Source: Escherichia coli O157:H7 | GTDB taxonomy: Bacteria > Pseudomonadota > Gammaproteobacteria > Enterobacterales > Enterobacteriaceae | Reading direction: 5' to 3' (one strand) | NCBI RefSeq assembly: GCF_013167455.1 | Contig: NZ_CP038328.1 | DNA length: 64,000 nt | Shown: one piece after another, positions 915 through 3,119 of the stretch | Layout: each line of letters begins with the position of its first letter | Position numbering within the stretch: the first letter of the stretch is position 1 | The notes under the pieces: generated by a model | Seen by the model: the letters and a program-made list of their open reading frames with translations, nothing else | The model's database searches: none | Told to the model about the DNA's origin: nothing | Made by a program: the position numbers and the translations under genes

Positions 915-1223
915 GTGCAGCCGGTTTTGATGGAGAAAATTATGAACACCTTGTTTTTACTGATGGCTGAATTCAATACCCCAAACATTGAACTCTCAGC
1001 AGTTAGCCAAAAGTACTTTGGTATGAGTCCAGCCACGGCAGAAGCAAAAGCAAACGCTTGTAAGTTGCCCGTTCCAACATATCGCATCGGCACATCACAA
1101 AAAGCAAAACGTTGCATCAATATTCAGGATCTTGCGGAATACATAGACAAAAGGCGAGAAGAAGGACGTATCGAGTGGGAACAGGTCAGAACAGTCAAAC
1201 AGAAGGGCAAAGAAAATCACTAA
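915..1223 (+). CDS. PrtN/excisionase-like small DNA-binding protein (true start may be an internal Met, MEKIMNTL or MNTLF)
   Basis: Product MNTLFLLMAEF...LPVPTYRIG resembles PrtN-family pyocin activator/excisionase-like proteins; followed by a strong hairpin. Confidence 0.45.
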   Translation: MQPVLMEKIMNTLFLLMAEFNTPNIELSAVSQKYFGMSPATAEAKANACKLPVPTYRIGTSQKAKRCINIQDLAEYIDKRREEGRIEWEQVRTVKQKGKENH

Positions 1224-1258
1224 AGAAAAAACCCGCCTGAAGGCGGGTTTTCAAAAAG
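1224..1258. terminator. intrinsic terminator hairpin (aacccgcctgaaggcgggtttt), potentially bidirectional
   Basis: Perfect GC-rich inverted repeat with flanking A/T tracts, between convergent gene sets. Confidence 0.55.
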
Positions 1259-1270
1259 CACCAGCTATGA

Positions 1271-1444
1271 TCATGCTGCTTTGAGACGACGAAGCTTACC
1301 CTGCTGCTCTTTACCAGAGACAGTAGCGTGAGTGAACGCATTAGGAGCAGCCTTCATCAGAACTTCAACAGCAGCACCCATACCTACGAATGCTTTCATT
1401 GTGTCGAACTTAACCTGTGGCTTGGTTGCTTTTTGATCTTCCAT
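1271..1444 (-). CDS. small hypothetical protein (about 57 aa), not in the ORF track
   Basis: ATG preceded by GGAG at 7 nt spacing; translation MEDQKATKPQVKFDTMKAFVGMGAAVEVLMKAAPNAFTHATVSGKEQQGKLRRLKAA; ends just upstream of the hairpin at 1224..1258. Confidence 0.3.
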   Translation of the reverse strand: MEDQKATKPQVKFDTMKAFVGMGAAVEVLMKAAPNAFTHATVSGKEQQGKLRRLKAA

Positions 1445-1483
1445 AGAAAACTCCAGAAGTTATACCGAAACAATTCCTGTTGT

Positions 1484-1903
1484 TTACTCATCATCAATAG
1501 ATGATACGCAATATTTATTTTTAAATTTAAGGTTCTTTGGCGTAACTTCATCAGAGATATCAAAACCGTCCAGAATTCTATTGAATGTAGCTTCTGGCAT
1601 ATCATCATGAACAGAAATCTCACCCGATCGCTGCTTTCTAACCATGTTATCCACTCGCCAAATTATAGCTTCAGCGTAAACAACATAACTTGGATGCTTG
1701 ATAAAGCGATGATCACCAGAATTCAAGACGCAAGACGGATCGTGGGGGACACCATCCTTGATACTAGAAATATTAACAACTAAAACACAATAACAATCGT
1801 TAACGGGGTAATAAACAGGATCATTACAAATCACATGAAGATGATTGCATGGTCCAGTTGGGGCAAGCACAGTTCCTTTCCTGTATGGCTGATAATCCGT
1901 CAT
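1484..1903 (-). CDS. hypothetical protein (139 aa), candidate toxin/effector partner of the upstream Panacea-like gene
   Basis: Start ATG overlaps the stop of the upstream gene (ATGA at 1900..1903); no recognisable family motif and no predicted TM segment. Confidence 0.5.
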   Translation of the reverse strand: MTDYQPYRKGTVLAPTGPCNHLHVICNDPVYYPVNDCYCVLVVNISSIKDGVPHDPSCVLNSGDHRFIKHPSYVVYAEAIIWRVDNMVRKQRSGEISVHDDMPEATFNRILDGFDISDEVTPKNLKFKNKYCVSSIDDE

Positions 1904-2472
1904 GATAATTGCAAAGAAAATTCCTTAAGTTTCTGAGATTCTTCCATTTTGCCAATTATGCGATTAGCCTCATCCTCGCTTTTACCCTCACTGATCAGCA
2001 TTTCTTTCAGGTCTATAGGCTTACGAGAATTGCCAGGATCGTGCCACTCTGGACAAACGCTTTCTAAATGCGTCATATTTGCGAGATCAAATCGGTTCAT
2101 ATGCCCATACCGAGAATAGATTTCATCTAAAATCCGGATATCTGCACGACTCAATTCATCAAAGACCTCGTCTGCATCCATTTCCCTCGGATCTGAACGC
2201 AACGATACATTATGCCCGTTCGTCTCTATCAAGTTGTACCAGTAGTCACCAATGCCTTCAGCCTTACCGCGAATCAAGTTCAGCGTATTCGACATGACTG
2301 GTCCAAATTTCATAGAGTAAAGGCTATCTTCGCCGATCATCCTGCCATGCTTCAAAATCGACTGGCGGTTAGACAGATAGAGCAGCTTCATCAATTTCAG
2401 ATATGCCATGCGCCCACCTCTCTTAAGAAGTAGGTATGCAGCCATTTGAGCTACTTTTTCTTCGCAAAACAT
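1900..2472 (-). CDS. Panacea (DUF4065; SocA/GepA-like) domain protein, candidate antitoxin
   Basis: N-terminal pattern YLKLMKLLYLSNR...SLYSMKFGPV matches the LKLQKLLYxA...GPV hallmark of Panacea/GepA phage-associated proteins (from memory, not searched); GAGG SD upstream. Confidence 0.5.
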   Translation of the reverse strand: MFCEEKVAQMAAYLLLKRGGRMAYLKLMKLLYLSNRQSILKHGRMIGEDSLYSMKFGPVMSNTLNLIRGKAEGIGDYWYNLIETNGHNVSLRSDPREMDADEVFDELSRADIRILDEIYSRYGHMNRFDLANMTHLESVCPEWHDPGNSRKPIDLKEMLISEGKSEDEANRIIGKMEESQKLKEFSLQLS

Positions 2473-3119
2473 ATAAGAAACCTCAAAGATAGTGAACTTT
2501 ATAATTATTCTCGATACTTCATGGGTTGCTTCATCACCAACATGAGCTTCTTATGGTGTGCCCACTTGGGCCTAAGCAACCAGTTACCTCGTTTGTCAAG
2601 TTTATAGCTGGCTTTAACCATGGTCAATTGAAGTGATGAGCAAATGATGCTTTCTAAGAATAACAGGTTCCCAATAGGCTCCCACAAAGTGCATAACTAG
2701 TTGTTTTTCAAAAACGGTACATCCTATCGAGCATTGGTGCAACGCTAAACCGACCACTCCAGTGAACGTCAGTTTTTTCAGGCATTGCGCTGGTTTGGTT
2801 GATTTTTTGCATTTCAGAATTACCGTGCATTTTCAAATGTAGAGATTATTTTATCGATATATCATGTGGTTATGTTATTCAGCATCACTGTTCAGGAGGC
2901 TCAATAACGGGGTACTATACCATAACAACAGGAAGCGCCTGTCTCATTGCAAAAGAAAATTGAGATCCTCTCAAGGCATGAAGCTCTCACGAAGTGAATA
3001 TCTAATCTTATTAGATGTTAGCGTTGTGAAAAGCAATGATAAACAATACAGATTCGACGATAAATAAAAATCACACATTAAACTCCGGTGATATCTCTCC
3101 CTGCTAATAGCACTGATAG

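Follow-up and report, generated by a model that had tools for sequence, protein, structure and literature searches.

Directly downstream of two overlapping genes at the left end of the window (the whole 64,000-nucleotide stretch of Escherichia coli O157:H7 DNA, contig NZ_CP038328.1, that was analysed) lies a short open reading frame, and its placement raises the question of what its 57-residue product, here called s57, is for. An earlier note on this DNA saw in it either a third operon member, such as a chaperone or regulator in a tripartite system, or an independent small phage protein. A lambdoid prophage of the Lys8385Vzw/mEp460 type, inserted in the 5' end of dusA, has its attL end at the left end of the window. 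From attL inward the order is the PanA gene, the 139-residue protein gene, s57, a terminator, a convergent PrtN-family gene and the exonuclease gene of the early-left operon:

2708..2830, minus strand: displaced 5' fragment of dusA, chromosomal, on the attL side, adjoining a DUF2713 gene and zur
1900..2472, minus strand: gene for the 190-residue Panacea (DUF4065)-domain protein (PanA), a putative antitoxin; part of an incoming cassette described below
1484..1903, minus strand: gene for a 139-residue putative toxin (PHROG 19071), overlapping the PanA gene by 4 nt; same incoming cassette
1445..1483, minus strand: spacer of 39 nt between the 139-residue protein gene and s57
1451..1454, minus strand: Shine-Dalgarno (SD) sequence GGAG, separated by 6 nt (TTTTCT) from the ATG at 1444
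1271..1444, minus strand: s57 gene, 57 aa with an ATG start, encoding a small basic protein (PHROG 2741, WP_000390073.1)
1251..1284, minus strand: weaker first hairpin overlapping the s57 stop codon, followed by UUUUUG
1227..1252, both strands: strong G+C-rich hairpin with U-runs on each strand, an intrinsic terminator directly 3' of the s57 stop codon
915..1223, plus strand: PrtN-family gene (PHROG 'excisionase'), convergent to s57; prophage backbone

The length of the reading frame is by itself little proof that it is coding, because the first 5 kb of the window hold 53 ORFs of at least 30 aa. Its conservation is a different matter and argues that it is not a chance ORF. The product (MEDQKATKPQ...RRLKAA) matches the PHROG 2741 profile from end to end (residues 1-57 against 1-57 of 57, E 1.1e-34) and is thus a full-length member of that family, and a search of 5.8 billion proteins returned homologues in 48 cluster representatives, mostly of exactly 57 aa, from Escherichia, Salmonella, Enterobacter, Atlantibacter, Cronobacter, Franconibacter and Hafnia. 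In a 23-sequence alignment the near-invariant parts are the core FDT.KAF.GMGAAVEVLMKAAPNAF and a C-terminal QGK.R.RKAA. Pairwise dN/dS between g177-linked copies from different genera (g177 being the partner gene introduced below) is 0.04-0.25, and variable sites fall at codon positions 1, 2 and 3 in the numbers 26, 25 and 48. The ATG and the SD are conserved in every context compared, with an SD-like GGAG, GAGG or GGGG at the same spacing in all homologous loci. Comparison of the homologues thus shows s57 to be a genuine protein-coding phage gene under purifying selection. The earlier description of a 57-residue frame with a good SD holds (GGAG 6 nt before the ATG, 39 nt after the 139-residue protein gene), as does the placement of its end just before a hairpin, the terminator at 1252..1227 following directly on the stop codon; the conservation of the frame extends across Enterobacterales. 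The gene had been taken to be unannotated, which is not the case: public entries are RefSeq WP_000390073.1 ('hypothetical protein'), Lys8385Vzw_30, mEp460_024 and an unnamed hypothetical-protein CDS in phage SKA5, and E. coli O103 RM8385, which carries WP_000390073.1, matches a 301-base stretch around s57 (window 1200-1500) at 100%.

None of these records assigns a function; s57 is a direct member of PHROG 2741 and of WP_000390073.1, both of which are catalogue entries without one. Searches of Pfam with the single sequence and with the 23-member alignment gave nothing beyond chance matches, and those of NCBIfam, PADLOC and PDB sequences gave no match or chance matches only. A literature search on the accessions, the peptide motif and the PHROG identifier found no paper, and the accessions of the locus are not listed in the supplements of the study of PanA systems (PMC8832971).

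In other genomes s57 keeps different company. A total of 113 loci (from RefSeq, GenBank phages, IMG/VR, GTDB genomes and metagenome assemblies) were classified by the gene upstream of s57 and fall into two classes only, with either PanA and the 139-residue protein gene or a gene of 177-179 codons (g177; mEp460_023) in that place, the latter on the same strand and 142-196 nt upstream of s57 in these loci (142-249 nt when all lineages compared are taken together). The PanA class is confined to E. coli, and its s57 copies are 95-100% identical to that of the window; the g177 class spans Escherichia, Salmonella, Enterobacter, Buttiauxella, Pseudescherichia, Franconibacter and Hafnia. Within E. coli, s57 is present in 561 of 5,426 complete genomes, 358 with g177 (g177, spacer and s57 all at ≥99% identity to mEp460) and 204 with PanA and the 139-residue protein gene (match to mEp460 from the SD onward only, together with the PanA pair).

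The association with g177 extends well beyond close relatives. Homologues of g177 in Edwardsiella, Photorhabdus, Brenneria and Serratia are each followed by an s57 homologue 49-64% identical, and in phage Eeyore, whose g177 is 42% identical, an unannotated 53-residue s57 homologue lies downstream (HMM E 1e-9). Four still more distant relatives of g177 all have an ORF of 50-59 aa immediately downstream (4/4), built alike from a Lys-rich N-terminal part, a helix, an E.SG.K+ motif and a basic tail. The g177 family is a small one, a search of 1.84 billion proteins yielding 85 representatives at E <= 1e-3, and every one of its loci examined has an ORF of 50-59 aa just 3' of g177. Outside the PanA class the s57 homologues were in turn always found with g177 in the loci examined. 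The pairing is asymmetric in one respect: s57 without g177 occurs, in the PanA class, and g177 without s57 was never seen. As judged from this conservation of gene neighbourhood, g177 is shown to be the conserved partner of s57.

The g177-s57 pair behaves as a mobile cassette and is found in at least four positions of phage genomes:

E. coli and Salmonella dusA prophages: the pair separates attL from the PrtN gene
Enterobacter, Hafnia, Serratia and Edwardsiella phages: it is flanked by the Q/DUF968 region and the lysis genes
Brenneria: it comes immediately behind a cI-like repressor gene
Photorhabdus: it lies within a block of tail genes

In most of these contexts -10-like TAnAAT elements lie 35-45 nt upstream of g177, often preceded by the terminator of the preceding unit; a promoter consensus scan of the region upstream of g177 did not rise above background. 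An equivalent of the G+C-rich terminator hairpin stands 3' of s57 in every context examined, and the first hairpin likewise travels with s57 in the other contexts examined, being weakest in the Hafnia locus. Self-contained, found at several positions and furnished with its own terminator and with -10-like elements upstream, the pair resembles the phage morons; the term describes an architecture and not a function, and in the window only the 3' half of the cassette is left.

The spacer between g177 and s57 forms conserved hairpins with some compensatory change: 7 pairs have changed on both sides (3 of 500 shuffles reach 7), and 89.8% of cells are paired as against 22-41% when the partners are slid. 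Rfam returned no family for the spacer or for the s57 region in five g177-class loci, and in the window it gave no family for the s57 region, only sub-threshold matches that lie on the terminator. The sRNA-17 of mEp460-like prophages (PMC7719688) was suspected from its size to be this spacer (193 nt against 196 nt) and was ruled out, since its primer sequences map to the early region, about 3 kb from the spacer; the window does not contain it. A structured spacer of 140-250 nt with the small gene downstream is atypical for type II toxin-antitoxin pairs, which counts against reading s57 as a neutraliser.

The partner protein has no match in Pfam, NCBIfam or PADLOC, and its PDB profile matches to engineered gp41 constructs were dismissed as due to Gly-rich linkers. 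Its AlphaFold2 (AF2) model is nevertheless confident (pLDDT 90.7 and pTM 0.88, from a 42-sequence alignment), and when this model was compared with the PDB by Foldseek the top matches were all GNATs (E about 1e-6, TM 0.5-0.6), including the tRNA-acetylating toxins AtaT, KacT and TacT as well as RimI, RimJ, SpeG, NatD and a lasso-peptide acetyltransferase. The predicted structure thus shows g177 to have an acetyltransferase-like GNAT fold. An invariant tyrosine (Y147, in PEL..YY.SFGF) sits at what we take to be the usual place of the GNAT catalytic Tyr. The CoA-pyrophosphate loop motif presumably is degenerate, as it looks so in the alignment, and for this reason enzymatic activity is not assured.

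In a fused g177-linker-s57 AF2 chain s57 forms a single confident helix (residues 15-39) between low-confidence tails, the confidence of the helix being uninformative about contact with g177. The protein is basic (10 K+R against 5 D+E), with eight lysines in the window copy; three of them, K5, K31 and K50, do not vary across the 23 aligned sequences. A membrane peptide of the Hok or holin type was considered and rejected, as the best 19-residue hydropathy window reaches only 1.13 and charged residues lie within the helix. The C-termini of the family (RRRKAA, RSRKAVA, RRRVREAA; consensus ...GKLRRRKAA) consist of a basic cluster followed by AA, VA or AAA. Degrons recognised by ClpX include the NRRKKAI of MuA and the YALAA of ssrA (PMC12723719). 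The tail of the s57 family resembles these, the C-motif-2 and C-motif-1 types respectively, in a likeness of sequence only; relative to the MuA-type motif the window tail RRLKAA is a weaker match, and the most distant partners end differently, for example in ...VNYG.

How s57 came to lie beside PanA can be read from the junctions of the locus, which together with the sigma-70-like site between them are as follows:

2663..2668, minus strand: left-hand swap junction, some 40 nt past the stop of the displaced 5' fragment of dusA
2599..2627, minus strand: sigma-70-like site TTGACC-17-TAAACT, the only such site upstream of the PanA cassette and inside DNA specific to the PanA class
1455..1458, minus strand: right-hand swap junction, where identity with mEp460 begins

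Relative to mEp460, near-identity starts at the s57 SD (GGAGTTTTCTATG) and persists across s57, the terminator and the PrtN gene, while all sequence upstream of the SD is unrelated. Relative to a g177-class prophage that occupies the same dusA site in E. coli, identity covers the chromosomal side and the dusA fragment and lasts as far as ...GGGAGCCTATTGGGAACC (about 2666), beyond which the two diverge. The PrtN-family gene is common to the PanA-class and the dusA-integrated g177-class prophages. Since identity with the g177-class loci stops at about 2666 and resumes at about 1455, window positions 1455-2666 are an incoming cassette of 1.2 kb, containing the promoter-like site (2627..2599), PanA, the 139-residue protein gene and the 39-nt tail, that replaced a promoter, g177 and the spacer. 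The link between s57 and the PanA pair is most simply explained by this single cassette replacement, and s57 is older at the site than PanA, because the junction with unrelated DNA falls at the s57 SD.

The replacement leaves s57 with no promoter that we could find directly upstream in the window. The 39-nt spacer (1445..1483) yielded no terminator, promoter-like site or notable RNA structure, and the translation initiation region of s57 is unstructured; s57 is thus presumably transcribed by read-through from the PanA cassette and possibly also from the dusA promoter, the native direction of which is into the cassette. The site at 2599..2627 is a candidate promoter for PanA, the 139-residue protein gene and s57 alike. 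At the other end the terminator is bidirectional and ends both the s57 unit and the convergent transcript from the PrtN/xis side.

The copies of s57 left behind by the swap differ from the others. All PanA-class copies begin MED and all other homologues MK, so that K2E is fixed in the class. PanA-class polymorphism comprises 7 nonsynonymous against 3 synonymous changes, with the near-invariant A20 and R54 among the changed sites (the window copy has both A20V and R54L), as compared with 1 nonsynonymous and 5 synonymous changes in the g177 class of E. coli. The excess is not significant (Fisher p = 0.12) and has the direction expected for relaxed selection. At least six disrupted MED alleles (frameshifted, deleted or fused) are present in the protein collection. 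Taken together the substitutions and broken alleles point to relaxed constraint on PanA-class s57, and in the window s57 is probably a passenger. The ORF is intact in all 63 PanA-class loci sampled, an observation that also fits continued usefulness.

On balance, and with no great margin of confidence, we favour the reading that s57 is an orphan in the PanA lineage, left by the swap, and that its native role is that of a labile neutraliser, or regulator, which binds the GNAT-fold g177 protein. The argument for a labile neutraliser is built on the strict pairing with g177, the asymmetry between s57 and g177 and the degron-like tail. The native unit would consist of a promoter, g177, the structured spacer of about 140-250 nt, s57 and the two hairpins ending in the terminator. 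Its protein would bind and restrain g177 through the conserved helix in the manner of an antitoxin (we infer both the binding and the neutralisation), and would be kept short-lived by a ClpXP-type C-terminal degron, this lability likewise being deduced from the tail. Recombination has put the cassette of PanA and the 139-residue protein in place of the promoter, g177 and spacer, with the SD, s57 and terminator kept. As an orphan, s57 would ride on a read-through transcript of the PanA cassette, its translation starting at its own SD, and the PanA system would have no need of it.

By analogy, the g177-s57 pair is most like the GNAT/RHH type II toxin-antitoxin systems (AtaT-AtaR, TacT-TacA, KacT-KacA) in its working. 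It shares with them a GNAT-fold partner, a mobile two-gene module and a small partner that is always present, and the helix and flexible tails predicted for s57 are similar to the toxin-binding C-terminal segments of AtaR and TacA, as these are described in PDB entry titles. However the antitoxins of those systems carry an RHH/DUF1778 domain, whereas s57 has no RHH and is a single helix in the model; their antitoxin gene lies upstream, adjacent to or overlapping the toxin gene, whereas s57 lies downstream after a structured spacer of 142-249 nt; and, as distinct from their toxins, g177 escapes the Pfam, NCBIfam and PADLOC models, the window itself being without a GNAT gene. Because it lacks an RHH domain and has a reversed gene order with a long structured spacer, the pair should not be filed as a member of these systems.

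Among the alternatives to a labile neutraliser the one that survives best, though we think it unlikely, is that s57 is an effector acting on a target of its own in host or phage, that g177 is only its modifier or regulator, and that s57 was kept in the swap as useful alone; it could for example neutralise g177 from superinfecting mEp460-like phages, and so counter addiction or give cross-immunity. The swap junction leaves precisely the s57 SD untouched, all 63 of the sampled PanA-class loci retain SD and terminator along with the intact 57-codon ORF, and g177-class phages are common enough in the same species (358/5,426 genomes) for encounters to be plausible. However s57, the terminator and the PrtN gene may merely have served as the homology arm of the swap, and the PanA-class copies are young (<=5% divergence) so that their intactness is weak evidence. 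Several MED alleles are in any case disrupted and others carry substitutions at near-invariant residues, and outside the PanA class s57 homologues always had g177 beside them, which speaks for s57 depending on it.

We give still less credence to a second alternative, in which s57 is a substrate or cofactor of the GNAT-fold protein, either a peptide that becomes active on acetylation or a targeting adaptor. The protein and peptide N-acetyltransferases among the top fold matches (RimI, RimJ, NatD and the lasso-peptide enzyme) and the number of lysines in s57, three of them invariant, are consistent with this, and the strict pairing fits a substrate as well as an inhibitor. The occurrence of s57 without g177 fits an antidote better, but it derives from one event. 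Slightly more doubtful again is an extension of the neutraliser reading, in which the pair would be an undescribed phage toxin-antidote or abortive-infection module, combining a cryptic GNAT-fold enzyme with a leader of structured RNA and a 57-residue neutraliser labile to ClpXP, and in which the orphan s57 would disarm the GNAT protein of mEp460-type phages in trans. No PADLOC-DB 2.0 defence model matches s57, g177, PanA or the 139-residue protein at E <= 1.

A third accessory role (chaperone, regulator or second antitoxin) in a tripartite system with PanA and the 139-residue protein is the reading that the locus first suggests, and we consider it very unlikely. The gene lies on the same strand 39 nt downstream of the pair, with its own SD, a shared terminator and no terminator or promoter-like site in between, and the arrangement recurs in 204 complete E. 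coli genomes; to this extent the earlier suggestion of a third operon member stands, as s57 is probably on the transcript of the upstream pair. Accessory third genes are moreover allowed for PanA systems, and the 39-nt gap falls within the 100 nt used to define them (PMC8832971). The same study finds such genes in small subsets of genomes only and deems them unlikely to act in neutralisation (PMC8832971). What does not stand is the tripartite role. Pairs of PanA and 139-residue protein homologues occur in Yersinia phage YeP1, Klebsiella phage phi12.5 and Pseudomonas phage Sirocco, and in all three they consist of the two genes alone, none of the reading frames holding an s57-like ORF (HMM E > 2), so that the conservation beside such homologues which the earlier note had named as a check is not found there; conversely, s57 homologues outside the E. 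coli PanA class never adjoin PanA and pair with g177. The junction of unrelated DNA at the s57 SD places s57 there before the PanA cassette. With its Panacea-domain protein, small putative toxin and overlapping genes the window pair is like the described PanA-PanT pairs (PMC8832971), and s57 would qualify as a 'third gene within 100 nt', but it is not conserved with homologous pairs and belongs historically to the other module. The weakest alternative, that the ORF is untranslated and that what is conserved is a DNA or RNA function at the cassette end (the terminator region, or antisense control of the convergent early transcript), has in its favour the shortness of the ORF and the two conserved hairpins that abut or overlap its stop codon, and can be set aside as most improbable given purifying selection at the protein level with variation highest at third codon positions, a small ORF that stays at 50-59 aa while s57 identity drops to 36% and, at the most distant loci, can no longer be detected, and its retention where no convergent gene is present.

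The labile-neutraliser reading thus gives a divided answer to the opening question. The suggestion of an independent small phage protein was right in that s57 is a genuine small phage gene, and wrong in that s57 belongs to a conserved pair of genes of which the window lacks the other member. For the prophage this means that PanA and the 139-residue protein are to be treated as a two-gene system, with s57 the leftover of an earlier cargo next to attL, and that the locus illustrates cleanly how cargo is exchanged at the end of a prophage, its breakpoints mapped to within a few bases. The main interest lies outside the window, in the uncharacterised pair of a GNAT-fold protein and its small partner. 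The comparison brings out a small, strictly paired family, in which a GNAT-fold protein invisible to the Pfam, NCBIfam and PADLOC profiles is joined through a structured spacer to a partner of about 50-59 aa, and which is present in about 7% of complete E. coli genomes, O157:H7 and O111 strains included, and in many other Enterobacterales prophages. If the pair is a toxin-antidote or defence module, it would represent a GNAT system with an unusual layout, and the PanA-class prophages would offer a natural case of an orphan antidote.

The slot adjoining the dusA att site behaves, in sequence comparison, as an exchangeable cargo position. The features at issue are:

Window 1455-2666: 1.2-kb cassette of PanA (190-aa Panacea protein, putative antitoxin) and the 139-aa gene (putative toxin), beside attL
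Window 1484-1903: the 139-aa gene
Window 2708-2900: displaced dusA promoter and first ~35 codons
L113:1444-2408: PanA/139-aa homologue pair, Yersinia phage YeP1

The cassette has replaced the cargo gene g177, which precedes the 57-aa ORF s57 in other lineages, and both junctions are resolved to a few bases. Records disagree on where the 139-aa gene starts: the RefSeq version gives a 128-aa product (L001:5631-6017), while the Lys8385Vzw and SKA5 records carry the 139-aa form, with a 4-nt overlap (ATGA) with the PanA stop. The YeP1 pair lies between dinI and the integrase gene, not on the side of the integration module where the E. coli cassette is found; this placement shows the PanA pair itself to be a mobile two-gene unit of int-proximal cargo slots.

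The loci for g177, s57 homologues and neighbouring features are:

L003:4271-4804 (mEp460_023) and L117:822-1355 (WP_000956557.1): g177
L003:4805-5000 (mEp460), with equivalents L005:4808-5000, L011:4823-5000, L015:4859-5000 and L101-L105: g177-s57 spacer
L004:8032-8052 and nine IMG/VR loci: sRNA-17, early region of some mEp460-like prophages
L015:3150-4109, L016:3051-4109 and L017-L019: RelA_SpoT-domain gene, Hafnia phage contigs, directly upstream of g177-s57
L115:2795-2956 (PP925821.1): unannotated 53-aa s57 homologue, Escherichia phage Eeyore

The g177 family (177-179 aa) is predicted with confidence to adopt a GNAT fold and went undetected in Pfam, NCBIfam and PADLOC searches. In a set of 5,426 complete E. 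coli genomes, 358 carry it, O157:H7 EC4115 and O111:H8 strains among them, and a search of 1.84 billion representative proteins at E <= 1e-3 gave only 85 cluster representatives. The Hafnia RelA_SpoT-domain gene is probably a toxic small alarmone synthetase, and with g177-s57 forms a toxin-like cargo cluster between antiterminator and holin genes. The Eeyore homologue of s57 (HMM E 1e-9; MEMKKERLFDTIQ...RRRVREAA) sits 3' of a g177 homologue with 42% identity, at a place where the submitted record annotates in its stead a number of short ORFs that overlap.

The spacer, absent from the window, is 142-196 nt long and contains conserved hairpins (CCAATCG/CGATTGG, TTACCT/AGGTAA, AAGGnTAGC/GCTAnCCTT, and TAGAC paired with GTCTC immediately 5' of the s57 SD). 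Both-sided changes occur at 7 base pairs of the alignment, in which 89.8% of cells are paired, versus 22-41% in slid controls. The spacer may act as a leader with a regulatory role or as a processing element; an Rfam search matched no family. The published, ArcA-regulated sRNA-17 of mEp460-like prophages (PMC7719688) is similar in length, yet it maps ~3 kb from s57, is not present in the window and is unrelated to the spacer.

Six s57 alleles in the protein collection (P0026, P0030, P0032, P0039, P0041, P0048) are frameshifted, internally deleted or upstream-fused, and because all bear the 'MED' N-terminus typical of loci with PanA/139-aa before s57, they suggest that the orphan s57 copy decays occasionally.

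Finally, the displaced dusA promoter and codons are directed into the prophage cargo cassette, and therefore host dusA transcription may drive or boost prophage cargo expression in lysogens.
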